64,000 bases of DNA, from NCBI GenBank assembly GCA_965116495.1, contig OZ220696.1, positions 4,192,001 through 4,256,000 on the forward strand, in the 5' to 3' direction. A program made the position numbers and the translations under genes. This DNA is from Gammaproteobacteria bacterium. Lineage in GTDB: Bacteria > Pseudomonadota > Gammaproteobacteria > Eutrophobiales > Eutrophobiaceae. Numbering within the stretch: the stretch's first letter is position 1; each line of letters opens with the position of its first letter. Positions 37,884 through 64,000 of this stretch are shown piece after piece. The notes beneath the pieces are model-generated. The model was not told the DNA's origin. It saw only the letters and a list, made by a program, of their open reading frames with translations, and made no database searches.

Positions 37884-37923
37884 GCCTATTGTTTCCTGAG
37901 CAGGATTATGAGCGAGTTCTTAA

Positions 37924-37973
37924 GGAGGCGCCATGACCGAACTCTACATTGACGATTGCATCAACGAGACCTG
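37924..37973 (+). pseudogene. 5' fragment of the repeated YHS-like gene (copy 1)
   Basis: GGAGGCGCCATGACCGA...GATTGCATCAACGAGACCTG, near-identical to the starts at 42979, 49117 and 60297. Confidence 0.85.
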
Positions 37974-38008
37974 AATGTCCCAATTCCTGAAGAACCTGCC
38001 CGTGGGTA

Positions 38009-38309
38009 GCTGGAACAAGGAAATTCAGGGGATAGCAAACACATCAGGGATCGGTTATTTGAGTTACGTTTATTTTTTGGACCTGGCTATCGAGTCTACT
38101 TCGGCAAAGATGGTGATACAGTTATCGTATTACTGGCCTCCCTGCGCGTCATAGCCAAAGTAAAAGGAATTTCAGCGCTTGCCATAGAGACTGGCATGTC
38201 CAGGCAGGGATTACAGAAAGCGATTTCAAGCAGGGGAAACCCGCGGCTGGATAACATCAATGCGATCATCCGCGCCCTGGGTTATCGTCTGACGCCGGTG
38301 AGAATATAA
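38009..38309 (+). pseudogene. collapsed addiction module: RelE-like killer fragment fused in frame to HTH antidote C-terminus
   Basis: LEQGNSGDSK...ELRLFFGPGYRVYF...VIVLL joined to ASLRVIAKVKGISALAIETGMSRQGLQKAISSRGNPRLDNI; no start codon. Confidence 0.75.
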
Positions 38310-38463
38310 ATCCCGGCCAGTCCAGGCTGAGTTAACGCCTGGCGGCAGAAAATGCGTCCAGGATGTATACCATGAAAAAGACATACCATAAATCGACTGA
38401 ACGCCAACCTTCTGATACGCTAAGGATTAATCACATGCAGACAAATACCGAAGGGGGCTTAGT

Positions 38464-39705
38464 ATGGCAAAACATGTTGTTATTGCAGGTGGGGGCACCG
38501 CCGGCATTACGGTCGCCGCGAGCCTGGCGCGCCAGGTAAAAAACAGTGAAGTAGATATTACCGTAATCGAACCGTCCGCCGATCATTACTATCAGCCCGC
38601 CTTTACACTGGTTGGCGCGGGGACATACAGCCTTGAAAAAACCCGGAGAGACGTAAAGAAACTGATCCCGCCAAAGGTAAACTGGATGAGGGATTCGGTA
38701 ACCGGATTTGACGCGGAAAATAACACAGTTAAGGTCGGATCAGGGGCAACTGTCAGTTACGACTACCTGGTTGTATGTCCTGGTCTCGAATTAAACTGGG
38801 AAAAAATTCAAGGCGCGGAAGACGCATTGGGACAGAACGGCGTATCCAGCAACTACTCGCCTGCGCATGCGGAATACACCTGGGAGGGGATCAAAAACCT
38901 CAAACCGGGTGCAAAGGCCTTGTTCACCCAGGCCCCCCTGCCGTTTAAATGCCCTGGCGCACCGCAGAAAATTGCCTATTTGGCGGCGGACCATTTACGC
39001 AACAAGGGGATATTGAAGGATTGCGAATTACACTTTCTGACCCACGCCCCGGGGATGTTTGCCGTACCCCTGTTTGCTGCGGAACTGAAGGACGTGGCAG
39101 CGCGTTATGGTATCCATGTTCACTTTCAACATAACTTGGTCGCAGTGGATGGGGAACACAAAAACGCCACGTTCGAGGTAGCAGGAGGTGACCAGAAAGG
39201 CAAATCAGTCACTATGGATTTTGACATTCTTCACATGACCCCGCCGCAATCGCCGCCGGAGGTGATAAAGACGAGCGTGCTGGCGAATGAGGGTGGGTTT
39301 GTCGACCTGAATCAAAACACCATGCAACATACCAGGTTTGCCAATGTATTTGGCCTTGGTGACGCAGGTTCTACCCCGAATTCGAAAACCGCTGCGGCAG
39401 TTCGTAAACAGGCCCCTATCGTGGTGAAAAACCTCTTGACACTCATCAATGGCGGCGAACTGGACACAGGTTACGACGGTTATGCGTCCTGTCCCTTAAC
39501 CACGGCATACGGGAAAGTGATCATGGCTGAATTTTGTTACGGGGGAAAAGTCACACCGACGTTCCCGCTGGACCCGCGCAAGGAGCGCTGGAGTTACTGG
39601 TGGATCAAAACAACCGGCCTGCCGGTATTCTACTGGAATTATATGCTGAAGGGCTATGAGTGGTTTTTAAAGCACGATACAGATTTCGTTGAACCGGCAA
39701 CTTGA
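38464..39705 (+). CDS. sqr: sulfide:quinone oxidoreductase (type II-like)
   Basis: GGGTAG, HYYQP, KCPGAPQK, NSKTAAAVRKQ, YDGYASCPL, AEF. Confidence 0.85.
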   Translation: MAKHVVIAGGGTAGITVAASLARQVKNSEVDITVIEPSADHYYQPAFTLVGAGTYSLEKTRRDVKKLIPPKVNWMRDSVTGFDAENNTVKVGSGATVSYDYLVVCPGLELNWEKIQGAEDALGQNGVSSNYSPAHAEYTWEGIKNLKPGAKALFTQAPLPFKCPGAPQKIAYLAADHLRNKGILKDCELHFLTHAPGMFAVPLFAAELKDVAARYGIHVHFQHNLVAVDGEHKNATFEVAGGDQKGKSVTMDFDILHMTPPQSPPEVIKTSVLANEGGFVDLNQNTMQHTRFANVFGLGDAGSTPNSKTAAAVRKQAPIVVKNLLTLINGGELDTGYDGYASCPLTTAYGKVIMAEFCYGGKVTPTFPLDPRKERWSYWWIKTTGLPVFYWNYMLKGYEWFLKHDTDFVEPAT

Positions 39706-40018
39706 GCAGGATTTCCGCCGGATGAACCGTGATTGACACAAGCGGTGAGTCAAGAGTCCTTGGGATCGGACCAGTCCAGTTTTCCGGACAGACACATCCT
39801 CTACGCTGGCTTGCTCCGGGAGCATAAAGCTACCTGCGCGCGACGCTCCGGGCTCAGCACACTGACTATGTCAGGTTCAGTTGCCTGCTGCATATTTCGT
39901 TGACAGGCAGGCAAAAGCCATAATAATTAATTTAATTACGTTGATTAAGTTTCAGGCTTCAAAATGAAGTTATTCCTTGGTCTTCATAAGAAATCAATCA
40001 TATTTTTGAGGATAAATA

Positions 40019-40270
40019 ATGGAAACCTACAGTTCAACCGATGCCAAACGGGAGTTTGGCGAAGTGCTTACCAAATCACAACGAGGGCCGGTGAGTGTCA
40101 CTCGTAATGGCAAACCTATCGCGGTGGTCCTATCCAACGTTGATTATGAAGAAATGAAGTTACAGGCATTGCGAGCCAAACTCATCAGGGGACAAAACAG
40201 CCCCGTCGTGGAAAACTGGAACACAGACGAGTTTTTAGCCAGGGCAAGAAAACGCGTCAGTGAGCAGTAA
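40019..40270 (+). CDS. Phd/YefM antitoxin
   Basis: STDAKREFGEVL...PVSVTRNGKP. Confidence 0.88.
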   Translation: METYSSTDAKREFGEVLTKSQRGPVSVTRNGKPIAVVLSNVDYEEMKLQALRAKLIRGQNSPVVENWNTDEFLARARKRVSEQ

Positions 40271-40571
40271 ACGCAACTTCCAGGTACGCCAGACTGCGGA
40301 TGACGATCTACTCGACATATTCGTCTACGGATGTGAAAAATTCGGTATAGATACTGCCGAAGCTTATATTTACGTGTTGGAAGCCGGCTTCCAGCGGCTC
40401 ACTGAACACCCGAAACTTGGCCGGTCAATTGATCAAACCATAGCGGGCATTCGAGCTCTACCTGCTGTTTCGCATGTAATCTACTACCAGGTAACAGATA
40501 CCACCATCGATATTATCCGTATCCTGCATAAGTCCATGCTTGCTGAACGACATTTCACCGCCGGGTCCTAG
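40260..40571 (+). CDS. ParE-family toxin
   Basis: ADDDLLDIF...FG...HPKLGR...HVIYY...IIRILH. Confidence 0.88.
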   Translation: MSSKRNFQVRQTADDDLLDIFVYGCEKFGIDTAEAYIYVLEAGFQRLTEHPKLGRSIDQTIAGIRALPAVSHVIYYQVTDTTIDIIRILHKSMLAERHFTAGS

Positions 40572-40643
40572 GGAGGCGCCATGACCGACTTCAACAAAGA
40601 GTCAGAAGACTCTGGAAAAAGACTTGAATCTTGCAATGTCCCG
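40572..40643 (+). pseudogene. chimeric scar: YHS-like gene start (copy 2) fused to 48 bp of the RelE toxin gene
   Basis: GGAGGCGCCATGACCGACTTCAAC then 40596-40643, identical to 63425-63472. Confidence 0.85.
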
Positions 40644-40779: not shown

Positions 40780-41970
40780 TTACCCCCGGAGCAGTGCCTT
40801 TGTACCCTCCTGCCACGGCAATACCTGTATCGGACCGAGGGAATAGTTATGCGTTGTCCGGCACAGGCAGAACAATTCAGCCGTATTATTTTCAGAAGCA
40901 AAGGCCCTGAGTCCTTTCAAATCAGACTCGCCGGGCGAGGATTGTGATTTGATCTCAATGGCCCTGGGCGTATCATGCGGGCCGCGTGTCAAAACCAGGT
41001 CAACTTCCAGTCCGGTATTGGTGCGCCAGTAATAAAAACGGTAACCCGTCTCGTTATAGTCATTGGCCCTGATTAACTCGTTCACGATAAAGGTTTCAAA
41101 CAGCTTTCCATAACGGTAGCTGCCGGGTTTCAGTTCGGTTTGCAACTCTCCCCTGACGGCATTCAGCACACCGCAATCAAAAAAATAATATTTCGGGCTG
41201 TGGCGCAATTGTTTGCGTACCGAATAACTCCAGCCGTCAATGCGGAAAGCAACCAGGGTATCTACCAGTATGTCAAAATACTCCTGCGCGGTTTTCACGC
41301 TGACACCGCTGTCCCGGGCAATGGAGGAATAATTCACGGGTTCGCCGTTGACCTGTCCGGCAATATCAAGCAGGCGCATGAAATGGTCGACTTTCCTGAC
41401 CAGGAGCTCCTGTATGACCTCTTCCTTGAGATAGGTTTCCACGTAGGCTTTCAGTGAGCGCCTTGCCGAGGACAGGGTTTCCTGGTAGAAACCCGGTAAG
41501 GTGCCGATGGTAAGCGCCTTGCGCAGGTCGGGTTCCACCTCCTGTGAGCTCAGGGGGTGCAGCTTCAGCGTCCAGGCGCGTCCGGCCAGGAGATTGGCCC
41601 CGGACCGTTTCAACTTCCTGGCGCTGGAACCCGTTAACAGGAACTGAACCCGGCCTTTATGAGTCTCTATCAGGTAATGTACCTCATCCAGGAGTCCGGG
41701 CAGTTTCTGCACTTCGTCGACAAGCACGGTCAGCGTTTCCTGTGCGGGAATATCCCGCAGACTTTGTTCGATTTCGAGGCGAAATAGGCCCGGTTCGGAG
41801 ATATAGCGCCTGAACGCGTCAAGGCTCAGCAAATCAATGCTTGCAGTGTGGCGCGCCCGGGCCAGGTAATGCTGTGCCAGCACAGTCTTTCCCACCCCCC
41901 TGGGGCCAAACAGGAAGGCGGACTTTTTTCCCTTGAGAAGTTTGACCAGGTTGAGTTTTCTTTCATACAT
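40780..41970 (-). CDS. AAA+ ATPase with DUF4143 C-terminal domain
   Basis: GPRGVGKT, VDEVQK, LTGSS, KYYFFDCG, EVD...AIEIK. Confidence 0.9.
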   Translation of the reverse strand: MYERKLNLVKLLKGKKSAFLFGPRGVGKTVLAQHYLARARHTASIDLLSLDAFRRYISEPGLFRLEIEQSLRDIPAQETLTVLVDEVQKLPGLLDEVHYLIETHKGRVQFLLTGSSARKLKRSGANLLAGRAWTLKLHPLSSQEVEPDLRKALTIGTLPGFYQETLSSARRSLKAYVETYLKEEVIQELLVRKVDHFMRLLDIAGQVNGEPVNYSSIARDSGVSVKTAQEYFDILVDTLVAFRIDGWSYSVRKQLRHSPKYYFFDCGVLNAVRGELQTELKPGSYRYGKLFETFIVNELIRANDYNETGYRFYYWRTNTGLEVDLVLTRGPHDTPRAIEIKSQSSPGESDLKGLRAFASENNTAELFCLCRTTHNYSLGPIQVLPWQEGTKALLRG

Positions 41971-42298
41971 ACTCCATAAATATATTATAAATTTGGAGTA
42001 TAGTCAATATTGTTCTAACTGATCGCGTTCCAGAGACGAGGGTGTGCAATGTGCGACCAGACCCCGTTTGCGCGGAAATTTCCACAGCCCGCTTCCGAAA
42101 AACCTCATAACGCACCCCGGCTTTCCGGCAGGCGATCCTGATCCGGTACTCAAACCGGCCTTCCCGGCCATCCGTGTCATAAATCACCACCGCCGGCCGC
42201 TTGCCGGTCACGTGACTGAAAAACAGCGCTATCAACGACAACATGCTGAGACCCAACAGCTTCATCAGCAACCTTTTGATACGGGTTAATACCATCAT
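41963..42298 (-). pseudogene. internally deleted copy of the secreted nuclease-fold gene
   Basis: Matches 47009-47611 minus 339 bp, deleted between two CAGCGC hexamers. Confidence 0.85.
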
Positions 42299-42620
42299 AA
42301 GGACGTTTTCAGCAGGATGTCGCAGTGTTGAGAATCAGATATCATGCTCGAAAACATAGCTGGCAATATACCATGAAATGATAGGAATATCAAATGGATA
42401 CCTTCATACAAGCTGTTATAAAACGGCACCGGATGAATGTGCCGTGAAGTAATTTCGAAGTCGTCGAAATGCCCTGGGAATACCGTCCCCGGAACTCCAA
42501 ATGTAATATAGCGCTATACGAGATTTTGTATAAAATAGCCTGATGAAACACAATGTCTGCAGGAAGCGTGCTGGCTGACATTCGGTATTTTCCGTCAATA
42601 ATGATTTCAGGGGTGTGATG

Positions 42621-42920
42621 ATGGGCAAGAAAGACAGGCACATTACAGAATCCTCCGGCAATGTCTTTGCTGATTTAGATTTTGAGCGACACGAGGCTAA
42701 AAACCTGCTGGTACGCGCCAGGCTCATGGCAGCGACAAAAACCTATATCGAATCTGAAGGAATCACGCAACGCGAGGCGGCTGAACGCTTCAACGTAGCC
42801 CAGCCCCTCATCAGCGAAATTTACCAGGGTAAGATCGAGTTATTTTCTGCCGACAAGTTGATCAACATGCTTGCCCGGGTAGGGCGGCATGTGGAGATTT
42901 CCATAAATGAAGCTGCCTGA
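42621..42920 (+). CDS. XRE/HigA-like HTH antitoxin (orphan)
   Basis: ITESSGNVFADL...TQREAAERFNVAQP..SEI...FSADKL. Confidence 0.85.
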   Translation: MGKKDRHITESSGNVFADLDFERHEAKNLLVRARLMAATKTYIESEGITQREAAERFNVAQPLISEIYQGKIELFSADKLINMLARVGRHVEISINEAA

Positions 42921-42978: not shown

Positions 42979-43248
42979 ATGACCGACCTCAACATTGACG
43001 ATTGCATCAACGAGACCTGCCCCTGGTCGGGCAAGCCGGTGCAGGCCGACTCGCTGGCCTTGTACGGCGATGATGTCGTCGGATTCTGCAATCCGGGCTG
43101 CCGTGACAAGTTTGAAAGCGCGGTCAGGCATTTTGAAAAAGCGAGGGCGTCGAGTGTAGAACGTATCAGGCAGGCCATGTCTGAACAGGGAAGGCCGCTG
43201 GAGGAATTCACTGCTGAGTTTGAAGCCGGGAACGGTATCAGTCGGTGA
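42979..43248 (+). CDS. small YHS/TRASH-like Cys protein (copy 3)
   Basis: CPWSGKPV...GFCNPGCRDKF motif; GAGGAG RBS. Confidence 0.7.
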   Translation: MTDLNIDDCINETCPWSGKPVQADSLALYGDDVVGFCNPGCRDKFESAVRHFEKARASSVERIRQAMSEQGRPLEEFTAEFEAGNGISR

Positions 43249-43962: not shown

Positions 43963-44397
43963 TTGATGAGGAATCAACGAGATAACATGGTATTTGTGGT
44001 CGCGTTATCCAAAGCGACATTTAAGCAGGGTGGGGACTATTCATGGATTGATGTTGTTGAGAAGGACAAACACTATTTTCATCCCATAGGAAGAGGATGG
44101 CCGAAAGAACCTCCCAACTACATTGCGTTTCGATATGACGGAATACTCCAGAGTGTTCACTATATTGAAAGCTATGAAGTCGTGACCAACCCTTGCGCTA
44201 TCAACGAGAACTGGCTGGAAGCAGACTACGAACAATATTTATATAAGCTCGGCCCGGCAATGAAGCCATCGGAAACAGTGAGAAGCGGCCCCATTTGGAA
44301 CAGCCGTTGTCGTTGCATTATAGACACCTTGCTATCAGGTTCCTGCAAAACCGTTAGTGAGGCTGTAGCAGAAACGAAAAGGCGAATTATGATCTGA
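43963..44397 (+). CDS. hypothetical protein, possibly a detached C-terminal domain of a nuclease
   Basis: YFHP...GWPKEPPNYIAFRYDG motif; no clear RBS, may be 5'-truncated. Confidence 0.45.
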   Translation: MMRNQRDNMVFVVALSKATFKQGGDYSWIDVVEKDKHYFHPIGRGWPKEPPNYIAFRYDGILQSVHYIESYEVVTNPCAINENWLEADYEQYLYKLGPAMKPSETVRSGPIWNSRCRCIIDTLLSGSCKTVSEAVAETKRRIMI

Positions 44398-44540: not shown

Positions 44541-44620
44541 TTACCATATCGGATGCTCTATCCAGTTTTCTGGTACTCCCATAGTTGCCCGCCATTTCCT
44601 GTCTTCTGCAATGGGCTTAA
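44541..44620 (-). pseudogene. 3' remnant of an Abi (AbiD/F-like) gene cut by IS1634
   Basis: Reads KPIAEDRKWRATMGVPENWIEHPIW*, resembling the MGFPxNW...W Abi C-terminus; abuts the IS end. Confidence 0.5.
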
Positions 44621-46707
44621 CCCAAGTTTACCAATCTAAAAAATAAATCGTTATATGTCAATGGGTTAGATTGACATAATTCCGCTTATGGCACTACATT
44701 CGCGCCATGTTGCGGACGCTGTACTCAGACGATCTCTTTCTGCGTACCGCCGGGTGGTCCACGAATTCCCAAGGCGTCCAGGATGGCCTGTTGCGGCGGT
44801 TCCGGACGGGTGGCCTTGCGCACGTGCACGGTACGTCCGTCTTTGCGCCGGACCGTGGCGGTCACCCGCTGACGGGCGCCGAGGATGCGCCGCAGCGTGG
44901 TCCAACTTGCGTTGCGGCAGGATTCATCGCCGTGCGCGGCCAGACGACGGCGGACCACCTGGACCAGTTGGTAGGCGATGACGGTGATGAACAGGTGGCC
45001 CTCGGCGCGTCGGGGCGTGCGGTGATAGATGGGGCGCAATCCCAGCTCGGATTTCAAGGCGCGGAACACTGCTTCGATGTCGGTGAGCAGGGTGTAGGTC
45101 TGCCACAGCCGCGCCTCATCCCAGTCGGTGAGGTTGCTGCGCAGGCAATAGATGCCGGGGTGGGTGAGCATCGAGCCGGTGACCGGCTGGCGCTGCCAGC
45201 GTACGGCCACGGCCCGTTGGCCCTTGGCATCGGTGTCGACCTCGATGGTATAGTGCTGGCCGATGCCGTGGCTGCGGGCTTTCAAGCGTCCGATACGTTC
45301 CCGGACGTAGCCTGGCTGCTTGCGCGTACGCGGCCGGGACAGGCCCTCGTGCAGCGCGCTGAGGCCCTGCTCAAAGCGCGCCATGAAGCGTTCGGCGATG
45401 GCGCGCTCTTTCTCGGCCCGCGCCGCCGAGTAACAGTACAGGCGCACCTCACCGGCCTTGGCATCGGCCACCTGCTCCAGTTGGACCGTCTCGCCCCCAC
45501 GGGTACGATGGGCCAGGGCGGCGTCCACGTCGAACCGGCGCTGTTGTTCCCGGCTCACCACGATGTAACGGTAGTCGTTATCCTTGAGCCAGGTGACCTG
45601 CGCCTCGGTGGCGATGCCCCGGTCGAGAATGACCAAGGCCCCCGGCGGGGTCTTGAGCGCCTCCAGCATCCCGGCCAGGGTGGTCTCCTCGCGCACGTTG
45701 CCGGCAAACACCCGTGAACGGCGCACGAAGCCGCTCGCATCGAGCACCAGCCCCAGGGTGAGCAGCTTGCAGTCGCTGCGTTTCTCTTTCGAATGGCCGC
45801 GCTGCGCCAGCGGCTGCCCGTGGGCCTCGCCCTCGTAGTAGGTGTTGGTCAGGTCATACAGGGTGACCGTCGGCGCCAGGTCAAACAAGTCCATGGCCTG
45901 CGCGAACAGGTGTGTCTCAATGACCGCACGGTGTTTGAGCAGCGCATCGGAAGCCCGGTACAACTGCATGGCGCCCATGCGTTCGAAGTTCACGTCCAGC
46001 AACTCGCCCAGGGCACTGCGCTCGCATAACCAGGCATGGGTGGCCCGCTCCGAGGCCGGGCACGCCAGCCGGCCCACGATGGAGCCGATGGTGGCGGCGC
46101 GCAGGGATGCATTGACGCCCTGTGCCGCGAGTAACTCGTCCAGCCCCACCTGTGCCAGGGCCCACAACCCCACCTGCTCCACGCCCACGCTGCGCGGGCG
46201 GGTCAAGGCCAGCGAGTCCAGATCGACTGCCATCCACGCCGGCGCCGTTCCCGTCTCGTCCGGTCGAGACCGGGCCAGCAGTTGGGCGCTAATCTGTTGT
46301 GCCGCACTCTCCACGCCGGCGGGCAGGCTCGCCAGCAGCGACGTCTGGCCCTGGCGCAACGCCTCAATACGTTGGCACAGGGTCGGCCAGTGTTGTTTAT
46401 CGATAGCAAACTCGCTGCCGAGGTTCAGCAGGGTGCGTTGGCGCACCTTGGTGCCCGCGCGCTCACTGTGCACCAGGCGGTGGGAGTAATAGGCCTGGCC
46501 GTCGGTACGGCGGGTGAGGGTACGGCGGATGAACATAGGGGGAGAGGATACCGCTCTACCACACCGATGTCAATATAAATATTCATATTATGGCACTACA
46601 ATGGCCAGACAACCCGTCACTCACCAAAAATCAATGCGTTACGATGACGAACCCGGCAGAAAATAGCAACATCCAACTAAATGCCAGTGAATCTTGGTAA
46701 ACTTGGG
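44621..46707 (-). mobile_element. IS1634-family insertion sequence
   Basis: Perfect 14-bp IRs CCCAAGTTTACCAA/TTGGTAAACTTGGG; flanks TTAA and TTAG; high GC; internal direct repeat TTATGGCACTACA at 44686 and 46588. Confidence 0.9.
44725..46536 (-). CDS. IS1634 DDE transposase
   Basis: VRQRTLLNLG, YDLTNTY, RGHSKEKRSD, LDRGI, IEAVFRALKSELGLRPIYH. Confidence 0.93.
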   Translation of the reverse strand: MFIRRTLTRRTDGQAYYSHRLVHSERAGTKVRQRTLLNLGSEFAIDKQHWPTLCQRIEALRQGQTSLLASLPAGVESAAQQISAQLLARSRPDETGTAPAWMAVDLDSLALTRPRSVGVEQVGLWALAQVGLDELLAAQGVNASLRAATIGSIVGRLACPASERATHAWLCERSALGELLDVNFERMGAMQLYRASDALLKHRAVIETHLFAQAMDLFDLAPTVTLYDLTNTYYEGEAHGQPLAQRGHSKEKRSDCKLLTLGLVLDASGFVRRSRVFAGNVREETTLAGMLEALKTPPGALVILDRGIATEAQVTWLKDNDYRYIVVSREQQRRFDVDAALAHRTRGGETVQLEQVADAKAGEVRLYCYSAARAEKERAIAERFMARFEQGLSALHEGLSRPRTRKQPGYVRERIGRLKARSHGIGQHYTIEVDTDAKGQRAVAVRWQRQPVTGSMLTHPGIYCLRSNLTDWDEARLWQTYTLLTDIEAVFRALKSELGLRPIYHRTPRRAEGHLFITVIAYQLVQVVRRRLAAHGDESCRNASWTTLRRILGARQRVTATVRRKDGRTVHVRKATRPEPPQQAILDALGIRGPPGGTQKEIV

Positions 46708-46717
46708 TTAGTGTTAG

Positions 46718-46940
46718 GGAAGCTCTGATCAAGTCCGTCCGGGACTTGTCAGAGCACGCACAAATCGGCGGGATAGCCGATTTGCACAACTTGTTGCCGC
46801 CTTGCGGCGAGCTACCAGGATGTAGCGAGTGAAAACAAAAATGCGATTTTTGTTTTGCTCCCAAAATCAATGACCTACAGTCATTGATTTTAACGGCACA
46901 TCCCTGTACCGTAGGAACCTCTGACTTAATCAGAGGTTCC
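46718..46940. mobile_element. 223-bp MITE with IS5-like ends
   Basis: IRs GGAAGCTCTGATCAAGTC / GACTTAATCAGAGGTTCC (16/18); TTAG duplicated on both sides. Confidence 0.7.
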
Positions 46941-54200: not shown

Positions 54201-57178
54201 AACTGGGCTAGCAGGCCATCAATGTCCAGTTCGAACACGGATTCCTTGTAGGTCGCAGCCGTACTCTCAAATTGTTGGCGGTAGCTTTGTACCAGCTCCG
54301 CACCCTGTTCAAGATCGGCGATCAACTCACGACCTTCGGGGCCGAGCAAGGAGGCGTACGACTGGTTGTAGGCCTGGGGCAGGATACGCTCAAGCGCGCA
54401 AACCTGTTTCAGGTCAGCTCGGCTCATCACCTTAATTGGCAATCCCAGCAGCTTGATCCAGGACTGCAGTGCGGCTTGCAAGTCCTCCGCCGCCCGGTGC
54501 AGGGCCTTGGACTGTGCAATGGTGTCGCGTTGCCAAGAGGGCGACCAGTCGTCGGCCTCGACCCGCTGAAAGCAGCTCTTGCTGATATCGCCGATCTGCT
54601 CGACATTGGCATCAATGCGTGCAGCGATACTGGAGAATTCCTCCAGGTCATCTTCGGTGTGCGCCCGGTAATCCGGCCAGTTGAACTCTAGCACGGCCAC
54701 CGCAAGATTGTTGATAGCCACGCCGATGGCCTGGAAAATGCTGAGGCCGTTGGCGTAGGTTTTGTGGAGTTGGCGGACGTAGGCATTGAGATCTTCGCGC
54801 AGGTTCACTAGGTGCTCCGTCTGGCGTTCCCAGTTGGAGATCTTAGGATGGCTGCTTTGCCACGCCTGATCGAATTGTTGAAGCACATCCGTCTTTCTGG
54901 CTTTGCTCGAGTGCAACTCCAAGCAAAACTTGCCCAACCCCACATCACGCAGACGCCGATAGACGACATCCAGCGCAGCGGTTTTCTCGGACACGAACAA
55001 AACCTTTTTGCCGATACCAAGGAGATGGGTGATCATGTTGGCGATCGTCTGGCTCTTGCCCGTCCCGGGCGGGCCCTCGATCACGAAGTCCATGCCCTCG
55101 GATGCCGCGATGACAGCCGCCATCTGGGTGCTATCGCAGGACATGGGCAGATAGGTGTCTTTCGGATGACATTTGCGATCCATCTCCTCCGGGCGCGGGA
55201 AGTCGACGCCGTCGTTGCCCATGTAGGTGTCGCGAGGGGTATCGATCAGGTGTTTGACCAGGGGGGAGTTCTTCAGATGTTTGGTGCGTGCATCCAGGTC
55301 CGCCCACATCAGGTACTTGGCAAAACTGAACGTGCTCAGGACCATGTCTTGTGAAACCTCCCAGCCTTTGATATCGCGAACCTGCTTGCGCACGATATTC
55401 CAGATGCCTTCCACATCCAGGCCGGAATCATCCTTTGGCAACTCCTTGGACAGTTCCGGGATTTCGAGTCCGAAGTCCTGGCGAAGCATTTGCAGCAGGG
55501 TCGGGTTGAAGTGCGGCTCATCGTCATGGATGCGCAGCTTGAATGCCGCATTCACGGACCTTCTCGAAAGGCTGACCGGGATCAGGATCAGCGGCGCTTG
55601 GCAGGTTCGAGAACGGTTACCCGTCTGGGTCCAGTTCAAAAACCCCAAGGCTAGATACAGGATGTTGGTGCCGCCTTCCTCGATTGCGGCCTTTGAGGCT
55701 CGGTACAATGTGATCAGCGAGGCGCTCAGTTGGCGCTGATCGAGTGCGGTGGTGATTTTGCCGCGTCGCATGGCTTGCAGCACCTGCTCCGCGTGCAGGT
55801 CCTCCGAGTACCGCCTGCGGTGCTCCTCACCGCTTCGCGGATCATCGGGGCTGATGACTTTCTCCAGCGGTGAGAAGGTGAAAACCTGGTCCTCGGCCAG
55901 CATGTCCTCCAGTTTGCCCGGATTAGTACAGATCAAAGGCACAGCCCGCTTGGACCGCTTGAAGTTCAGCAGCCGGTTGCGCAAGGACAGGTCAAGGAGT
56001 TTGCGTTTCCAGTTTTCAACACGACGATTCGCGTCCACCACATCATCCGGGGTGGGGGCATCCGGGTATTCCACATCCTCGGGCAGATCACTCAGGTCAT
56101 CCAGGCCGGCATCGATCACCTCGTCGACTGCGGTAGCCTCCTGGCCTACCTGCGTGATCCGCTCATACAGCGGTCGAATCCGGGCCAGGCGGGATTGCTT
56201 GATATCGACCAGCAACAGAAAGCTGTCTTCATCGAACAGCTTGCCGTTGGCCTCCTGCCTTGCCTGCTTGAAACTGACGGCAGGCCGGCGCGCCACGAAG
56301 GTGGTCTCAAACACCAGAATCTCCTTGAGGTCCACCCGCTTGCGCAAGGCCTGCAGATCCTCGACCACGCTGGTGCCAAACTCCAGGTCTTCCAGCCAGA
56401 CCCCGACAAAGGCATGGCCCTTGGTGAAGATGACCAGCGAATTAAAGCCGGCCTGCTCTAGGACGCCGGCGAATAACAGGGTGGAGTCCATGCAGGTGAC
56501 CAGCCGGTGTCTCTTCACTTCCTCGGGCAGGCGGATTTTCTGGCCAGCATCCTCGAAGCTCGCGGGCGGTTCGGCATAGGCCAGATCCTGGCGAACGACC
56601 GCCGACCAGATGGCATTGACCATCTCACCAGCCCGTTTTCGACTTTTTGACTGATAGCCGTCAAGCATTGGGTTGCGGCCATTGGCCTCCAGTATCTTCG
56701 CTGCGGTTCGCAGGATTTTCTGGGTGAATGGCGAATTCGGTTGCACATAGGCGGCCAGGATTTCCGGCAATTCCTGGATCCCGCCCCATTCGTTTCGACT
56801 CAGGACTTGCACATCACTAGAGGCTGTGGCAAGCACTTCATCCCCTGCATTCAATGTGAAGTCGTAGGTGCCCCGAACTGCCTCGTTGACCTCCTCCAGA
56901 AAGCCCGGGTTGAGCTCGACCATGCAGTCGCGCAAGGAGATCTCGGCGTCAGGAGCCAGTCGGGTGATGTGCCAGACCTTGGGGTTGGCGAATCCCGGGG
57001 TGGTGGTCACCGTCAACTCCAGGTCCTGATAGCTGACTTCCGTGGGATTTTTAAGAACGATATCCCGAAGAACCGGTACCGAGTTTTGCTGCAGCGCCAG
57101 ATTTACCTTGTGGGACGCCGTAATCTCAATGGCGATCTCTTTGTTCTCCATTTCATGAGTCTCTGTCTCTGAATTCAT
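51218..57178 (-). CDS. DUF4011 + SF1 helicase + Vsr-like nuclease + DUF3320 protein (Hhe-type anti-phage protein)
   Basis: WKRKLLDLSLRNRLLN, GPPGTGKSQT, DEASQ, GDPKQL, WHYRS, QGDE, RRLNVAITRA, FDSPFE...IECDG...WSTDW. Confidence 0.9.
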   Translation of the reverse strand: MNSETETHEMENKEIAIEITASHKVNLALQQNSVPVLRDIVLKNPTEVSYQDLELTVTTTPGFANPKVWHITRLAPDAEISLRDCMVELNPGFLEEVNEAVRGTYDFTLNAGDEVLATASSDVQVLSRNEWGGIQELPEILAAYVQPNSPFTQKILRTAAKILEANGRNPMLDGYQSKSRKRAGEMVNAIWSAVVRQDLAYAEPPASFEDAGQKIRLPEEVKRHRLVTCMDSTLLFAGVLEQAGFNSLVIFTKGHAFVGVWLEDLEFGTSVVEDLQALRKRVDLKEILVFETTFVARRPAVSFKQARQEANGKLFDEDSFLLLVDIKQSRLARIRPLYERITQVGQEATAVDEVIDAGLDDLSDLPEDVEYPDAPTPDDVVDANRRVENWKRKLLDLSLRNRLLNFKRSKRAVPLICTNPGKLEDMLAEDQVFTFSPLEKVISPDDPRSGEEHRRRYSEDLHAEQVLQAMRRGKITTALDQRQLSASLITLYRASKAAIEEGGTNILYLALGFLNWTQTGNRSRTCQAPLILIPVSLSRRSVNAAFKLRIHDDEPHFNPTLLQMLRQDFGLEIPELSKELPKDDSGLDVEGIWNIVRKQVRDIKGWEVSQDMVLSTFSFAKYLMWADLDARTKHLKNSPLVKHLIDTPRDTYMGNDGVDFPRPEEMDRKCHPKDTYLPMSCDSTQMAAVIAASEGMDFVIEGPPGTGKSQTIANMITHLLGIGKKVLFVSEKTAALDVVYRRLRDVGLGKFCLELHSSKARKTDVLQQFDQAWQSSHPKISNWERQTEHLVNLREDLNAYVRQLHKTYANGLSIFQAIGVAINNLAVAVLEFNWPDYRAHTEDDLEEFSSIAARIDANVEQIGDISKSCFQRVEADDWSPSWQRDTIAQSKALHRAAEDLQAALQSWIKLLGLPIKVMSRADLKQVCALERILPQAYNQSYASLLGPEGRELIADLEQGAELVQSYRQQFESTAATYKESVFELDIDGLLAQLSNAEEKWFLAKWLDVRAVKAKLKPFSGGSKITDEAADLALLSKARKTRAEFGLLKGLDSVIGRKFDGIHTDLALFRQAAAFGHQIRGVMGGLFATPEAFREATSTMISLLQSADLLGPSGQIQASASTFVKAVETYEAAQQALGATIAASGDLHIGPEGTSFLQTTIDTCAEWVEQAPRLRAWTAWRRVRNDALTQGMKSLVDAVEQDVLAGSTAEEAFRVNYHLWWLNCAVDNDDVIRKFVPAEHARTIEDFVKLDQDFMELTRYYVYAKLSQAIPSRTHIPQGSTWHVLSREIQKKRRHMPVRQLVEQLGSNLFKLTPCVMMSPMSVAQYLPPEGASFDVVIFDEASQITPWDAIGAIARASQAIVVGDPKQLPPTSFFSRQEDEYNDSDIDVGDLESILDECMGANLPTYQLKWHYRSRQESLITFSNHHYYGGGLITFPSPATADTAVSFHYVEDGLYEKGGTRSNLPEARAVVDSIVARLRDPEFKQTGMTIGVVTFNQEQQVLIEDLLEKTCQDHTEIEPFFAEDNIEAIFVKNIESVQGDERSIIYFSMTYGKDHSGRLSMNFGPMNQEGGRRRLNVAITRARNEMRIYSSMQPEDIDLSRTAAAGVKDMKHFLDFAKRGTKAIGEAIERPLKTFDSPFEEQVAVRLEERGWMVHSQIGVSGFRIDLGVVHPDQPGRYLAGIECDGATYHRSATARDRDFLRQQVLKNLGWKILRVWSTDWWITPEDCTDQMDRQLRELLESSGEDSDVASVKVTDTMDVTEEEVVEGTQPDSVNTDGDGLASDADSRVVEWQKVAGAVVEDAPDIPGKCEYIPWSATSTDLHLKQDSFYEFHYRATHASLMEQIVQHEQPIRVEVLFKLITRAHAFKSVGGRINRVLGKILKSNDRLQITTEGSLRFVWLVNANAFNWDSFRVVEKFSHQRAAEDVAMPELVAMSRYFIDCGCKQDDAVVEMRKWLGMRRIGEKGRKRLEAAYQTGMSSLQLQGV

Positions 57179-57193: not shown

Positions 57194-57750
<557 letters not shown>

Positions 57751-57866
57751 CCGTGATTCCTACCCGGGCTTCCGCCTGTACCAGGAGTTTTAGGACGCAG
57801 TGCCGCCTGCCTGGGGGGACCGGGCAGCGGTACCTGGACCAGGTCACGGGGAGGGGCTCAAGAATG

Positions 57867-58618
57867 TCAATACATCTCAAAATACTCCCTATGCTCCCAA
57901 TCCGTAGGATGCGCCAGGAACCGCCCAATCTCAGCCCGCTTTATATGCAGAAAGTAATCAATGTACTGATCCCCGAACCCGGTTCTCAATACCTTGCACC
58001 GATCCAGGGCCTCAACCGCCTGCATAAGCGAATTGGGCAACGGCGGCTTGTCGGTCTGCCCGTAGGGATCCCCCCGCACCGGCTCCCCCGGATCCGTCCT
58101 GTTCCGAACCCCGTCCATCCCGGCATATAACTGCGACGCCATGTACAGGTACGGATTAGCCGAGGGTTCCCCCGAGCGGTTCTCGATACGCGTACTCGGC
58201 TCAGCGTAACCTCCCACCAGCCTGAGCATGGCGCCGCGGTTGTCGTGGGCCCAGAGAATGCGGTTCGGCGCCAGCGGGTTGGCGTTGAGGCGCTTGTAGC
58301 CGTTGATGGTCGGGTTGGAAAAGGCGCACAGCGCGGCCCCGTGTTCGACCAGTCCGCCGATGTAATGGTAACCGGTATCGCTCAACAGGTTGTCGTCGCT
58401 GGTGAAGGCGTTGGCCCCGGTTTGCGTATTGCGCAATGACTGGTGCAGGTGCCAGCCGCTCGAATAGACGTTGGGCAGGGCGGGTTTCGCCATGAAACTG
58501 GCCAGCAGCCCGTGACGCCGCATCAGGTGTTTGACCGCGGAGCGGAACAACAGCAGGGAATCGGCCGCGGCGAGGCCGCTCAGGGGATTGAACGTCACCT
58601 CGAACTGGTCCGGTCCCC
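57867..58618 (-). pseudogene. 5'-truncated glutamine synthetase-family (PuuA-like) gene
   Basis: GPDQFEVTF, FMAKP, SSGWHLHQS, DNRGAMLR, RIENR; N-terminal half absent. Confidence 0.85.
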
Positions 58619-58648
58619 CCTTCTTATAGGTGTCCTGGAATCACGCGC

Positions 58649-58960: not shown

Positions 58961-58961
58961 G

Positions 58962-60647: not shown

Positions 60648-61427
60648 TCAAGCAACGCGACGCAGGAGTTTACGTTCAAGATCGTCAACCGAGGCAAGAG
60701 ACGAGATCATTTCACCCCCCACGTCAGATAACCGTGCAAGATCATTCCTCGGTATCTCAGACTGGTCTTCAAAGATCAGTAAAGATTCGAATGTGACCTG
60801 GTGCCGATGGAAATGAGATAGCATTATCGTCGTGAGACGTGCCTTATCCCGATTCGGCACACCGTATAGAAACAGGGGGGTATCAACGCCCTCTATCCTG
60901 TAGTCTACCGGATACGCTTCCCGGTTTGGTATTTCTTCCAACAGGTAATCGACCTGCATCCTATCCTCATCAACCAGACTCGTAAGTAAATCTGCAAGGT
61001 CATCATAAAACGTTGACTGTACCCTGGAACGTGAAAGAAAAGTCAGATCGTAAACTCTCGTAAGCGCCTGGCCGAAATGGAATATGGCCTCCGGCAATTT
61101 CTCAATAGACGTATCCAGACTAAATTCACCGTTATTCCAGCTTACACTTGCTTCTTCCACAAGACGTTCCAGTAGCTGTCTTCTTGTTCCTTCAAGGAAT
61201 GAATCTATGTCGTGGTCATAGCTGATATGCATAATGGTGTGACCACGGTCCGACAGGCGTACTCCACCTGCGTTGGACGCAGCAACGTGAATAGGAAACC
61301 TGTCACCGTCCGGGAACTCGAAATGAGTGCTCAGCATCAGATCACCGTCAGGGCGCGATGATAAATGAACATCTTCACAAAGCCGCTCGCACAAAAGTTG
61401 CCGTAATGAGTTGACGTCAAGAGTCAT
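60648..61427 (-). CDS. DUF1828-like domain protein
   Basis: THFEFPDGD...RLSDRGHT N-terminal motif; YPVDY in C-terminal half. Confidence 0.7.
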   Translation of the reverse strand: MTLDVNSLRQLLCERLCEDVHLSSRPDGDLMLSTHFEFPDGDRFPIHVAASNAGGVRLSDRGHTIMHISYDHDIDSFLEGTRRQLLERLVEEASVSWNNGEFSLDTSIEKLPEAIFHFGQALTRVYDLTFLSRSRVQSTFYDDLADLLTSLVDEDRMQVDYLLEEIPNREAYPVDYRIEGVDTPLFLYGVPNRDKARLTTIMLSHFHRHQVTFESLLIFEDQSEIPRNDLARLSDVGGEMISSLASVDDLERKLLRRVA

Positions 61428-61565
61428 TAAAATAACCTCGGCTGGTCACGCTCAGCCTGAATGCCCATGACGCTGTAATCTTCGATCAAGCAGGCTAAAG
61501 CACCTTCAAGAGTCACATAGCGATCGGTTTCTTCGGCCCCCCGTTCCGGTTTTTTGCCCGACGCC
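61427..61565 (-). pseudogene. 3' remnant of the upstream partner gene of the DUF1828 protein
   Basis: GKKPERGAEETDRYVTLEGALACLIED...QPRLF*; TAATG coupling to the next gene. Confidence 0.45.
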
Positions 61566-61568
61566 CCG

Positions 61569-62255
61569 TTAAGGAGCGTTTCTTTTTTCGTCCTGAAATA
61601 TACCAGGAACATCAGGATGAAAAATGCGTGCAGAAACTACCTCGTTTCTGGAGATGACAATTTGAAAATCTTCGTGTTGCAGTCCAGAAACATCTTCAAG
61701 TGATTTCTTGACCGCAGGCGTGTAATTGGTCGTAATTTCCAGTTCCAGGGTATCCTTGTCCCGATAACCACTGGCCAAGGGAATCAACGCAATATCAGGT
61801 TCGCCATGTCTTGTTATTTCGCTCCCGAGAATCAGCCCGATGTAAGACTTCCTGCTCTTCAGTGAAAGTTCAATAAATTCTTGTTCTTTAACGGACTGCG
61901 CCAGAAGCAGGTCCAGGCGGTAACCATTTTTTTGCGCTATGTGCGCGGCGGACTTTTCCCGATCGTAGAATATGTTGCCTGCAAGCGGCAACACAAGCCC
62001 TGACAGGGCGCTCCCGATAAACGGGGCAGAGTTGGAAGCCAGCGCTGATGAGATAAATATCGCATTGTCGGCAGCGCATAACTTCAAAAGAAAAATTATC
62101 ATTTACGCGAACACAAATAAAAACCCGCCTGCAATCGCTGACTGAAAAAAGACGTGGTATCCCGAAGCCCTGACCACATTGTAATTTGTGTAATGCAGGT
62201 GGGTAAGGAACCAGTAGCCGCTCAGAACGGGAACAAGATACAGACCAAACTCCAT
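61569..62255 (-). pseudogene. membrane protein gene with in-frame TAA at 62103-62105
   Basis: MEFGLYLVPVLSGYWF...GFLFVFA* continues in frame into ORF 61569-62102. Confidence 0.65.
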
Positions 62256-62296
62256 GTGCTACGGCTCCTCAGGAAAAAGACTACTGAATTGATGTC

Positions 62297-62467
62297 CTAC
62301 GACCGTCCCTCAGGAGCAGCAGGTTTACGCTGTTTGAAAAACTGTGCCATTTTATTCACCGCGGCGCGACCTCTTTTACTTTTCAGCAATTCATCCGCCT
62401 TGACATACACCGTTCCCGAGTTTGTGACATAGACTTTGGGCCGCTCCCTTTGTGCACTATCTGACAT
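62297..62467 (-). CDS. 56-aa basic hypothetical protein
   Basis: MSDSAQRERPKVYVTNSGTVYVKADELL...; GGAG RBS; below the ORF-track cutoff. Confidence 0.5.
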   Translation of the reverse strand: MSDSAQRERPKVYVTNSGTVYVKADELLKSKRGRAAVNKMAQFFKQRKPAAPEGRS

Positions 62468-62562
62468 AATCTTCTCCAGTAAAAATCATGTTTTTACTTT
62501 CTTAAAACTCTAGATCATTTTTTGTGATCTTTCAATGGAACTCATAACCGCCATCCACTTAA

Positions 62563-62946
62563 TTATGTAGAAATTTCCACAGTCCGCTTCCGAAAAACCT
62601 CATAACGCACCCCGGCTTTCCGGCAGGCGATCCTGATCCGGTACTCAAACCGGCCTTCCCGGCCATCCGTGTCATAAATCACCACCGCCGGTCGCTTGCC
62701 GGTCACGTGACTGAAAAACAGCGCCTGCTGTACGCTGTCCAGGCTGCTGCGCTTATCCAGGCCACCCTCGTAAACCATTGTGCCGGTCTCACAATCCACT
62801 TCCACGTAACTGCGACCGCCGGCAGACGCGTACCCATGACGGGTTTCCGTCTCCCCGTTGACCATGGCACAAAACCAGCGATTGTAATCATCCTCTGACG
62901 CAGTCGTGCGCGGCGTCGAACGGCCTGTTTCATTCATCGGCGCCAA
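62563..62946 (-). pseudogene. 5'-truncated third copy of the secreted nuclease-fold gene
   Basis: Near-identical to 47058-47425; signal peptide and His/Cys motif missing. Confidence 0.85.
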
Positions 62947-63137
62947 ATCCCATCCCCAGAACTCCAAAGTCAATATTGTACATAAATTTTGGGGTCAGGT
63001 CGCACAATGCATATCATTACGCTGAAGGGATGTGTCGCGAGTGCGTAATATGCGATCTACCCCTATCCTACAACTTACGTGAAGAAAATTCTTGAAAATT
63101 ACCTTGCGAGGTATATTGTATAAGGTAGTACTGATTG

Positions 63138-63500
63138 ATGCTGGAATTGAAAAAGAAATTGCCAGCCGCTTTTTACCGCTCACTATCGGACACAGAGCCG
63201 GTACGTGATTGGATTAAAGCGCTGGATGCGAAAGATCAAAAGTTAATCGGAAGGGATATTGCAACACTCGAATTCTGTTGGCCGGTGGCCCAGCCAAAAT
63301 GCAAACCCGTTAAGGGTAGAAAAGGGCTTTGGGAAATCCGTTCGAACATTTCGAGTAAACGTATTGCACGAATTCTTTTCTGCATCCATGACCGTGAGAT
63401 GGTATTGCTGCATGGATTCGTGAAAAAGAGTCAGAAGACTCTGGAAAAAGACTTGAATCTTGCAATGTCCCGTATGAAAGAAGTAAAGAAAAGTGACTGA
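63138..63500 (+). CDS. RelE/HigB (Gp49-like) toxin
   Basis: EPVRDWI...GLWEIRS...RILF...MVLLHGFVKKSQKT. Confidence 0.9.
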   Translation: MLELKKKLPAAFYRSLSDTEPVRDWIKALDAKDQKLIGRDIATLEFCWPVAQPKCKPVKGRKGLWEIRSNISSKRIARILFCIHDREMVLLHGFVKKSQKTLEKDLNLAMSRMKEVKKSD

Positions 63501-63783
63501 GAAGAAAAATCCACGTATTGGCTCAAGCGCTGATGATCTGTGGCAAGAGCTTGGCATTCTCGAGGACATCACAGCGACTGCGATAAAGCGCACCATCGCG
63601 ATGCAAATCGAAAATGAAATGTCTACACAGAAAATCTCAAAAGCAGAAATGGCGCGCAGGATGAGGACCAGCGCCTCTCAGCTTGAACGTATTCTTGATC
63701 CGGATAATCAACGCGTTCAACTCGACTCTCTGGTCAAAGCCGCTCATGCCGTGGGTAAAGAGCTTTCTGTAGCGCTGCATTAG
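63493..63783 (+). CDS. XRE HTH antitoxin
   Basis: IGSS.DD...ISKAEMARRMRTSASQLERILDP. Confidence 0.88.
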   Translation: MTEKKNPRIGSSADDLWQELGILEDITATAIKRTIAMQIENEMSTQKISKAEMARRMRTSASQLERILDPDNQRVQLDSLVKAAHAVGKELSVALH

Positions 63784-64000
63784 ACTTTGCAGAGCACCAT
63801 GTAGAAATTTCCATAAAATGCTTGCCGAATTGTACGGCTGTTTCCCCTTAACCTAACCAACCTGTCGTTTAGCAATTTACAGCAATGGATTGCCCCTTGA
63901 AAAAAATCTTACTGTCTACTATAGTTTGCATAACTATTATTGTGATATATGGACATGTCAGGGACATCAGGAAATAAAACGCTTCTTGTTTACAAGGACA

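Follow-up and report, generated by a model that had tools for sequence, protein, structure and literature searches.

A toxin–antitoxin and defence island of uncultured marine bacteria that probably grows by stacking of alleles without an integrase

Position and gene content of the island

In a genus of uncultured marine bacteria, the island described here sits at one fixed spot between two conserved metabolic genes, and in the genome under study (G000) it is bounded by a dioxygenase gene on the left and a glnA-like gene on the right. It is 44 kb long (43.9 kb), extending from 35.7 kb of the window, the whole 64,000-nt stretch of DNA that was analysed, to 15.5 kb beyond the window end. The preliminary description of this DNA had let the array start too late: the island begins at about 35.7 kb and reaches position 79547. 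Interspecies homology at the left border stops at about 35645–35751, the dioxygenase gene is strongly matched in 16 of the 22 congeners, and no tRNA was found in the window or the following 34 kb. The features below include two repeated genes, A and B, that had been taken for anchors.

33736–35740, minus: left conserved border, ring-hydroxylating dioxygenase alpha (34331–35656) and beta genes with the upstream region
35741–64000, strand not assigned: window part of the island, which extends beyond the window to position 79547
35850–36980, plus: Fic protein (SoFic model), its stop codon falling within a 62-nt relic of the AAA gene (36969–37030)
37208–37883, plus: FitA-like antitoxin and PIN toxin, ORFs intact
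37918–37973, plus: A copy 1, a 56-nt stub of 13 codons and then a stop
38011–38389, plus: fused remnants of a killer/antidote pair and a GFA start, joined at 38138 on a 3-nt microhomology; intact copies at 63949–65001
38464–39705, plus: SQR-like oxidoreductase, copy 1
40019–40571, plus: Phd/ParE pair, ORFs intact
40572–40643, plus: A copy 2, a 24-nt stub that runs into 48 nt of internal sequence from a relE-like gene (gene at 63425)
40780–41970, minus: AAA_14 + DUF4143 ATPase (PDC-S01 model)
42084–42298, minus: B copy 1, with an internal deletion on CAGCGC
42615–42920, plus: XRE/HTH_37 antitoxin-like gene, copy 1, toxin partner not seen
42979–43248, plus: A copy 3, a YHS-like domain followed by a Phd antitoxin C-terminus
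44618–46943, strand not assigned: IS1634 and a multicopy miniature element of about 230 nt, internal and not bounding the island
47009–47611, minus: B copy 2, a full-length gene of 200 aa without family match
47933–48828: XRE copy 2 (plus) and a HicB/HicA pair (minus)
48966–49386, plus: A copy 4 (YHS-like domain and Phd tail), to which a truncated NadS-like antitoxin is fused
49997–57178: HsdR_N protein (plus) and DUF4011 helicase / Hhe-like gene (minus)
57362–57676, minus: IS remnant (rve core fragment)
57866–58623, minus: stub of the glnA-like border gene, its 3' 756 nt, beginning at the stop codon
58649–59797, minus: HigB/HigA-like pair and a ParD antitoxin whose toxin partner is cut after about 10 codons
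60192–60584, plus: NadS-like stub and A copy 5, which runs into the end of the 43267 ORF across a 9-nt microhomology
60648–62467, minus: DUF1828 protein and small ORFs without family match, part of it common to G016, G018 and G020
62563–62946, minus: B copy 3, 5'-truncated on a 9-nt microhomology
63135–63783, plus: RelE-like (Gp49) toxin and XRE antitoxin, 98% identical in G015 and G016
Beyond the window (a): killer/antidote pair, GFA, second SQR, FitA/VapC, ParD/ParE
Beyond the window (b): sixth A copy (68185), two HNH, UDG-like, SLATT, TIR
Beyond the window (c): QueC, Ogg-like, TIR-TGT, IS630, PfkB
79548–81029: intact glnA-like gene, the right border of the island

The cargo labels assigned earlier held up apart from the "Abi remnant", at 43963–44397, for which Pfam, PADLOC and NCBIfam gave no match. 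The island contains eight families of repeated segments, and the repetition of the SQR and XRE genes, the NadS-like stub, the killer/antidote pair and the 3' half of the glnA-like gene had been overlooked. SQR copy 1 is 98.7% identical to the copy beyond the window and 96–98% identical to those of three other species, and the DUF4011 helicase / Hhe-like gene shares 94.8% identity over 6.3 kb with the island of G020. IS1634 has seven more near-identical copies in the genome; together with the rve remnant and IS630 it is internal to the island, and the repeated blocks are not bounded by these elements.

The repeated genes A and B

Gene A had been reported to start five times in one orientation, each time downstream of a toxin–antitoxin (TA) gene. 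A relaxed motif of ribosome-binding site and start codon gave exactly five matches, all on the plus strand (ATGs at 37933, 40581, 42979, 49117 and 60297), and none in 100 shuffles; the strict motif as originally written matches three of the five starts and misses the other two. Every copy does lie downstream of a TA gene, yet the contexts number four rather than five, because the copies at 49117, 60297 and 68185, the last lying 4.2 kb beyond the window, share one inherited junction. The junction of the first A stub also occurs in G008, G018, G019 and G020. Gene A is a passenger without a special site, three of its copies consisting of a YHS-like gene fused to a Phd antitoxin tail.

For gene B, the starts at 42298 and 47611 were placed correctly, as were the divergent XRE and RelE-XRE genes beside it, whereas the third position (62946) is a deletion junction rather than a start. 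The 3' end of B copy 1 is joined to the end of an XRE gene, a go-back junction common to other species. B is dispersed and marks no special site: it occurs at three further places elsewhere in this genome, with nine matches across the genome of one relative.

Comparison across the genus

The interval could be read with both borders in 10 genomes, ranging from 0.3 kb in G009, which serves as an empty-site control, to 63 kb in G003. The intervals are built from one shared pool of TA and defence pieces, reshuffled. Among the BLAST matches of the islands of 13 relatives against this island, 174 of 178 have the same orientation, a count that omits IS, miniature-element and hairpin matches and whose matches are not independent. 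Within G000, the locus ranks first of 174 genome bins: 22 of its local repeat pairs are direct and none is inverted.

Pieces shared between species are nearly identical (SQR 96–98%, RelE-XRE 98%, and FitA/VapC 96–98% in G016, G005 and G022), whereas the flanking genes of the same species pairs are only 82–87% identical. A replacement flexible genomic island, in which alternatives have negligible mutual similarity, does not fit, as the island versions share pieces at 88–98% identity. On the right flank, identity to G022 and G015 is 94% over 4.5 kb of core DNA, compared with 86% on the left, so the right flank appears to have recombined.

Stubs of the border genes lie inside several islands, those of the dioxygenase (left border) in G003, G019 and G022 and those of the glnA-like gene (right border) in G000, G001, G015 and G019. 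The glnA-like stubs of G001, G015 and G019 share 80–84% identity with the resident gene, cluster with the alleles of G005 and G009 (support 0.99) and probably trace to one old event. The stub of G000 (57866–58623), which marks the end of the first stacked block, is 95.6% identical to the intact copy. Changes on its own branch comprise 11 synonymous and 4 non-synonymous ones, whereas decay expects 27% synonymous (p=2e-4), indicating that it diverged while functional.

Junctions, mobility genes and competence genes

Thirteen junctions were picked by hand where both parents could be found. Microhomology of 3–9 nt is present at 7 of the 13 and of at least 6 nt at 5 (random joins, 5.4% and 0.2%), and the remaining 6 show 2 nt or less. 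Both microhomologies named in the preliminary description, CAGCGC (6 nt) and GTTTGAAGC (9 nt), were recovered. Such marks are also left by deletions.

The reported lack of an integrase and of attC sites in the window was confirmed and the negative widened to the whole genome. No match to the IntI model TIGR02249 exceeded the cut-off in G000 (best 83.5 of 265 bits) or in any of the 22 congeners, and two of two other genera of the family, as controls, were positive. The attC model R1, built from integron-bearing relatives of the family, finds 6 held-out sites in G024 and gave no hits in the window, its extension or 15 island stretches from 10 relatives; an attC pattern scan of the island returned background density. 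No tyrosine recombinase match lies within 300 kb, and no resolvase-family match was found in the genome.

Genes for DNA uptake and recombination (recA, comEC, dprA and comM) are intact in this genome, comEC being intact in all 16 congeners searched, and the PilQ match falls under its cut-off. The presence of competence genes is no proof of transformation. Intact copies of mutS and recJ, two genes that limit such illegitimate events, are also present. A G005 junction absent from G000 was found in the same three samples as the DNA of this genome, so that a related donor was at hand.

Probable stacking of alleles and its alternatives

Considering the fixed spot without an integrase, the near-identical interspecies pieces and the broken border copies, the island probably grows by stacking, in which one end of an incoming allele is held by homology while the other is joined illegitimately, so that alleles accumulate in tandem and then erode (probability about 0.6). 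The fixed position, the shared pool, the single orientation, the cross-species near-identity, the border stubs and the microhomology joins were observed directly. Donor DNA, derived from a different strain or species within the genus, would enter, probably via natural transformation, and pair by homology at one end with a border gene or any piece already shared, while the other end would close by a short-homology illegitimate join. Donor and resident versions would lie one behind the other in the same orientation, at times separated by a stub of the far border gene; the border stubs on either side fit a one-sided homologous anchor. Deletions would then erode the stack and would tend to halt where genes still under selection begin or end, so that TA pairs would stay intact and become enriched. 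Ordinary double crossover between the flanks would spread whole islands as well.

Set against 13 congeners, the earlier proposal of serial addition of locus versions followed by microhomology deletion is supported, without special arms at the anchors: rather than A or B, it is more likely the conserved border genes, together with any shared piece, that serve as homology arms. The term "integron-like" suits the outcome only, since the units have no defined ends. More tentatively, and at odds below even, enzyme-free allele stacking may be genus-wide, each version acting as landing pad for its successor as co-resident species pile up whole versions of the locus in tandem, with microhomology deletion shuffling and fusing genes and addiction modules acting as a filter. 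On an allele-stacking reading, the YHS-Phd fusion would be one product of deletion shuffling that itself spread. Stacking may even be a general habit of the lineage, as is suggested by milder cases at further TA clusters in the genome.

Several points weigh against stacking, among them the 6 junctions with little microhomology, the sub-threshold PilQ match, the intact mutS and recJ genes and the IS elements inside the island. No single event was caught with donor, recipient and product, and among the 10 duplicate pairs of this genome that have an outside homologue, only 2, both with the sixth A copy, are more than 1 point closer to another species than to each other. Over all islands this holds for 12 of 26 duplicate pairs, several not independent. 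Given how few pairs are closer to outsiders, most copies here could be in-place duplicates or same-species imports.

In-place tandem duplication by unequal crossing-over between own repeats, followed by foreign allele replacement through double crossover and then by deletion, is accordingly a serious though rather unlikely alternative. Growth would start from the cell's own chromosome, the duplication possibly being triggered by transformation as in pneumococcal merodiploids. In 8 of the 10 pairs the copies are at least as close mutually as to any sampled species; go-back junctions, such as the XRE end joined to the B end on a 3-nt microhomology, are an expected product; and the mechanism has been demonstrated in S. 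pneumoniae (PMC3784515). Against it stand border stubs of another lineage, at about 80–84% identity to the resident gene, and the synonymous excess on the stub of this genome; moreover, no long identical duplicate exists (best 98.7% over 1.3 kb) and no IS copies bound the blocks.

An unrecognised site-specific or single-strand (HUH/RAYT-type, or IS-driven) cassette system, inserting for example at the A start, is improbable. Four left partners reach the A ribosome-binding site within 2 nt, several pieces meet the dioxygenase upstream region at 35723 and three meet the Fic 3' end; these recurrent ends, however, are functional edges (ribosome-binding site, upstream region, C-termini) with no common motif by inspection, and the cuts within pieces fall at many different positions. 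Elsewhere in the genome there is a Y1 transposase-family gene whose reading frame is open, and GGGGTC[AG]G hairpins look similar to a consensus given in PMC6006769; yet the hairpin motif is about as dense in the island (2.7 per 10 kb) as in the genome (2.3 per 10 kb), and only 1 of the 13 junctions has it within 30 nt (p=0.23). The tyrosine recombinase and resolvase searches likewise speak against such a system.

A chimeric assembly joining haplotypes of co-occurring strains or species is very improbable. A congener with a different arrangement is present in the same samples, none of the listed contigs covers the stretch from end to end, the source sample may be among the runs, and depth in X21 falls to 144–150 at 40.6–44.5 kb vs 172–182 leftward. 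Against this, unique pieces over 35.0–50.5 kb show flank-like depth (77–89 vs 78 in X19, 81–93 vs 92 in X22), SQR depth is 1.4–1.7-fold, and all three samples have a mismatch-free 2.4-kb contig that links Fic, VapC, A stub 1 and the killer remnant. Three right-hand block junctions are present at comparable depth, and the same build recurs in independent genomes, several of them single contigs. Read depth thus argues against a chimera for the left part, where the strain-haplotype artefact considered in the preliminary description could be tested and did not appear; the right part was checked indirectly. A decayed integron array (CALIN) left after integrase loss is largely refuted by the attC and IntI searches, even though two other genera of the family carry integrons and TA-rich content is described as typical of large integrons (PMC2654758).

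Relation to known systems

Hotspots of horizontal transfer that lack mobile elements have been described, their content being exchanged through recombination within the core genes on either side (Oliveira et al. 2017, PMC5635113). The present locus resembles them in its fixed interval between conserved genes, fast turnover, recombined flank and host with competence genes. Their double-crossover model, as outlined there, spreads and replaces without lengthening or border stubs, whereas several self-versions are stacked here; and set against their criterion of no mobility-associated proteins, the island has no integrase, yet holds two IS transposases and a remnant. The additive flexible genomic islands of Alteromonas, as described in PMC4898812 and PMC4033161, are similar in genus-wide position, variable unit number and order, near-identical units across species and a partial target repeat left behind. 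They differ in that the present island has no tRNA target, no integrase and units without fixed ends, and its border repeat is a stretch of a protein gene, variable in length and hundreds of bases long, on either side.

Like the core defence hotspots of P. aeruginosa (PMC10250203), the island is defence-rich and core-flanked, with no single mobilising mechanism. Those hotspots, whose construction that account leaves open, are presented as multiple discrete integrations, often at tRNAs; self-duplication and border stubs are features of the present locus. Homology-facilitated illegitimate recombination, described in A. baylyi, S. pneumoniae and P. stutzeri (PMC6382021, PMC2884548) with joins in a 3–10 nt microhomology range (PMC6382021), compares well with the putative homologous anchor plus microhomology join, the 3–9 nt at 7 of 13 junctions and the competence genes. 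The reported cases are laboratory single events; here the process would act as a repeated, net-additive natural builder.

The transformation-induced merodiploids of S. pneumoniae (PMC3784515) also carry tandem region copies without a transposase or integrase, but are described as IS-repeat-bounded duplications of own DNA of 100–900 kb, whereas the blocks here reach at most about 20 kb, are 91–99% identical, carry different cargo and have no bounding IS pair. Sedentary chromosomal integrons share the stockpile of small genes rich in TA pairs, unlike the present island with no IntI, no attC, mixed gene orientation and genes cut internally. No published description of such a self-stacking island was found in open-access full text. 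The parts and component mechanisms are already known, and what is unusual is the natural, repeated, cross-species record.

Significance

The usual explanation, double crossover in the flanks as set out in PMC5635113, accounts for how hotspots spread and not for how they grow. The present locus keeps, in many near-complete genomes, the scars expected from growth by one-sided recombination, and the signature can be scanned for in any genus: divergent border-gene stubs inside an island, one orientation and microhomology joins. If true, stacking would add a third route to defence islands, next to integrases and simple replacement; foreign border-gene stubs within an island would reveal it anywhere, and it would stockpile defences without dedicated machinery.

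Extent and setting of the island

The genome under study (G000) is assembled as one contig of 4.34 Mb that is 99.5% complete, with the window at C1:4192001-4256000, and the relatives compared with it are metagenome-derived gammaproteobacterial genomes. A related strain is present in a sponge metagenome, in a run to which it contributes a small share, so that a sponge is the likely habitat. The preliminary description of a repetitive TA/defence array in the window was partly confirmed, and the true object is larger, extending from 35.7 to 79.5 kb (window numbering, continued past 64000) between a dioxygenase gene on the left and a glnA-like gene on the right. Eight TA pairs in the island keep intact ORFs, and several antitoxins are lone or cut; no lone intact toxin was seen in its gene content. 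Its genes of defence type are Fic, AAA-DUF4143, Hhe-like helicase, HNH, TIR and QueC/TGT.

42979, 49117 and 60297: copies of gene A with an extra Phd antitoxin C-terminus
47009-47611: full copy of gene B, 200 aa (also in L155, a stretch outside the window)
68185: sixth copy of gene A, beyond the window end; native gene, 64-aa YHS-like protein
79548: start of the intact right-border glnA-like gene

At 70585-77997 (L001:12585-19997), a cluster contains UDG-like, SLATT, TIR (ThsB-like), QueC, Ogg-like glycosylase, TIR-TGT fusion and PfkB genes, the last separated by IS630; it is possibly a base-modification defence system of unusual make-up. Other TA/defence loci occur elsewhere in G000. A second mosaic (L173:4077-9412; C1:4,334-4,339 kb), in which an antitoxin gene is duplicated and two AAA_14 ATPases and an NYN protein are encoded, directly precedes a cas9-like gene that overruns the contig end. 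A dense TA cluster with small direct repeats (L174:2056-11002; C1:2,190-2,199 kb) comprises Xre/RES, an AbiE pair, three HigBA/RelE-XRE-type pairs and AAA-DUF4143.

A fixed hotspot with exchange between species

The site is fixed. Of 22 congeners, 16 have a strong match to the dioxygenase gene; the adjoining DNA was read in 13, and both borders were reached in ten genomes, G000 included. The interval measures ~0.3 kb in G009 and 8, 9-14, 16, 23, 31, 33, 41, 44 and 63 kb in the others. The G009 interval holds miniature elements only; the pieces that fill this empty site are all related to a ~230-nt element at 46712-46943 with many copies genome-wide. The islands share one pool of pieces in differing order, and the same orientation is kept in 174 of 178 matches.

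Transfer across species is evident in identities of 96-98% for SQR and 98% for RelE-XRE, against 82-87% for flanking genes; the FitA/VapC pair likewise reaches 96-98% to G016, G005 and G022 and 92% to G020, and the helicase region is 94.8% identical over 6.3 kb in G020. A junction of G005 that is absent in G000 was found in the same samples as G000 DNA. Moreover, identity to G022 and G015 is 94% over 4.5 kb of core DNA right of the island and 86% on the left; on this measure the right flank is recombined. Pieces evidently move between hotspots too: at another G000 locus, beside a B stub, a 508-nt stretch (L005:6620-7127) matches part of the G019 island at 98.4% identity. In G003 the resident dioxygenase genes (C1:1785834-1787753, L033) are only ~75% identical to all congeners, whereas an internal dioxygenase stub reaches 89% to G019, as if the border gene had itself been replaced.

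Repeated genes and relics

Five starts of gene A had been reported, and a motif scan places them beyond chance, although two are stubs. The nearest Atlas clusters to native A encode 57-74 aa, and the last 33 residues of the 49117 copy are 67% identical to an intact Phd preceding a ParE gene in relatives. The proposal that A is a dedicated anchor does not survive, as the gene is cut at many places and fused. Matches to the Phd tail alone are also labelled 'A' in the segment-order table, so the number of A copies it gives for a relative is a maximum.

In the island gene B occurs once in full and twice with deletions, and G000 has three further copies elsewhere; it is found in 12 of 22 congeners, with up to nine matches in one relative, and is multicopy and dispersed in the genus. 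The protein, which may be nuclease-like, has a hydrophobic N-terminus, a conserved His/Cys motif and 487 relatives. Family searches returned no match, nor did a fold search at E<=0.001 with a low-confidence predicted structure (pLDDT 58). Copies of the gene recur with the same 669-nt limits, one at the stop codon and the other ~100 nt upstream of the start; by inspection the flanks carry no target motif, and a mobile cassette with defined ends was rejected.

Also repeated are SQR (1309 nt, 98.7%), killer/antidote, XRE, a NadS-like stub, a 226-nt segment and 756 nt of the glnA-like border gene. Between unrelated sequences lie short relics (16-62 nt) of the interiors of neighbouring genes. In local, non-genome-wide repeat pairs the island tops 174 bins of 25 kb, with 22 direct and none inverted, and at least one labelled segment is repeated in 11 of 14 islands. 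At 43963-44397, the supposed Abi remnant is a 144-aa ORF with no family match in three libraries. Elsewhere in G000, C1:2,504-2,521 kb is repeat-rich, with long tandem repeats at 2.50-2.52 Mb, and C1:3,631-3,670 kb combines repeats of both kinds, direct and inverted, at 3.63-3.67 Mb, with a tyrosine recombinase match close by.

Border-gene stubs

Stubs of the right-border gene, beginning from its stop codon, lie inside the islands of G000, G001, G015 and G019. In the latter three, identity to the resident gene is 80-84%, and the stubs group in a clade adjoining the alleles of G005 and G009 (support 0.99); they probably go back to one old event. The G000 stub is a separate case, 95.6% identical to the resident copy. 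Its branch carries 11 synonymous and 4 non-synonymous changes where 27% synonymous would be expected (p=2e-4), and this excess indicates that the divergence arose before the copy lost its function. G003, G019 and G022 contain stubs of the left border; a search to the left of the duplicated border in G022 revealed no donor tract.

In-place duplication with later replacement is a possible, if tentative, alternative to the addition of donor versions, and the duplicates themselves speak against addition. In G000 only 2 of 10 pairs show a clearly closer match to another species than between the two copies, and most stacked copies there could therefore be of same-species origin or products of in-place duplication; over all islands the figure is 12 of 26 pairs, which are not independent.

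Junctions

Thirteen hand-picked junctions with both parents available overlap by -2, -1, -1, 0, 1, 2, 3, 3, 6, 7, 9, 9 and 9 nt, while a random-join null gives >=3 nt in 5.4% and >=6 nt in 0.2%; microhomology joins are thus present. From an automatic count over 89 junctions only this null was retained, since independent breakpoints that lie close together in intact sequence raise the apparent microhomology. The A ribosome-binding site, the dioxygenase upstream region and the Fic and SQR C-termini recur as ends with different partners; these are functional edges that, by inspection, share no common motif.

Dedicated machinery and assembly

Searches for tRNA, tyrosine recombinase, resolvase and VirB4 matches turned up nothing that would explain the site. 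A tRNA-targeted island was rejected, as was conjugation, the genome having no VirB4-family match. IS elements lie inside the island, and block boundaries are free of them. GGGGTC[AG]G hairpins, considered as recombination sites, are not enriched, including at junctions. A site-specific system of some other kind is unlikely.

A chimeric assembly is very improbable. Contigs from three sequencing samples (X19, X21, X22; runs may include the source sample) were placed on 35.0-50.5 kb, where unique pieces have flank-like depth in X19 and X22 and 80-100% of the flank in X21. In each of the three samples the first A stub is spanned by a mismatch-free contig of 2.4 kb, and three junctions of the right-hand block, itself covered only through them, have similar depth in the same samples; no single sample contig spans the whole stretch. 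The architecture shared with other genomes is a stronger argument against artefact than depth.

The absence of integrase and attC claimed for the window was upheld and extended: IntI gave nothing over cut-off in G000 or 22 congeners, and an attC model built from nine sites of the other family genera, both of which possess IntI, recovered six held-out sites in G024 (a family member of another genus) and had no match in the islands searched. An integron or CALIN was rejected on these grounds, a relic integron being hardly credible.

Proposed mechanism

In its behaviour the island resembles additive flexible islands and the integrase-free hotspots of PMC5635113; it differs from integrons, tRNA-targeted additive islands and replacement islands. 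The literature covered, mostly non-subscription journals, yielded no account of islands that stack on themselves and hold foreign border stubs. The proposed join corresponds to homology-facilitated illegitimate recombination as summarised in PMC6382021 and PMC2884548, and tandem copies arising from transformation are shown in PMC3784515.

The genes recA, comEC, dprA and comM are intact; a FitA/VapC pair 79% identical to the island's lies ~2 kb from comM (L154:12079-12849). The earlier interpretation is partly supported: the process it proposed is probably right, the anchors are not. We favour, with a probability of roughly 0.6, stacking by one-end pairing and a microhomology join, followed by deletion. 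A donor version would pair at one end, its other end being joined through microhomology, so that donor and resident versions come to lie in tandem, and each shared piece would offer a further landing pad. Deletions would then fuse and trim the pieces, and we infer that they extend up to what selection keeps; that TA pairs would resist deletion is what the stabilisation model proposes, reviewed with cautions in PMC2654758.
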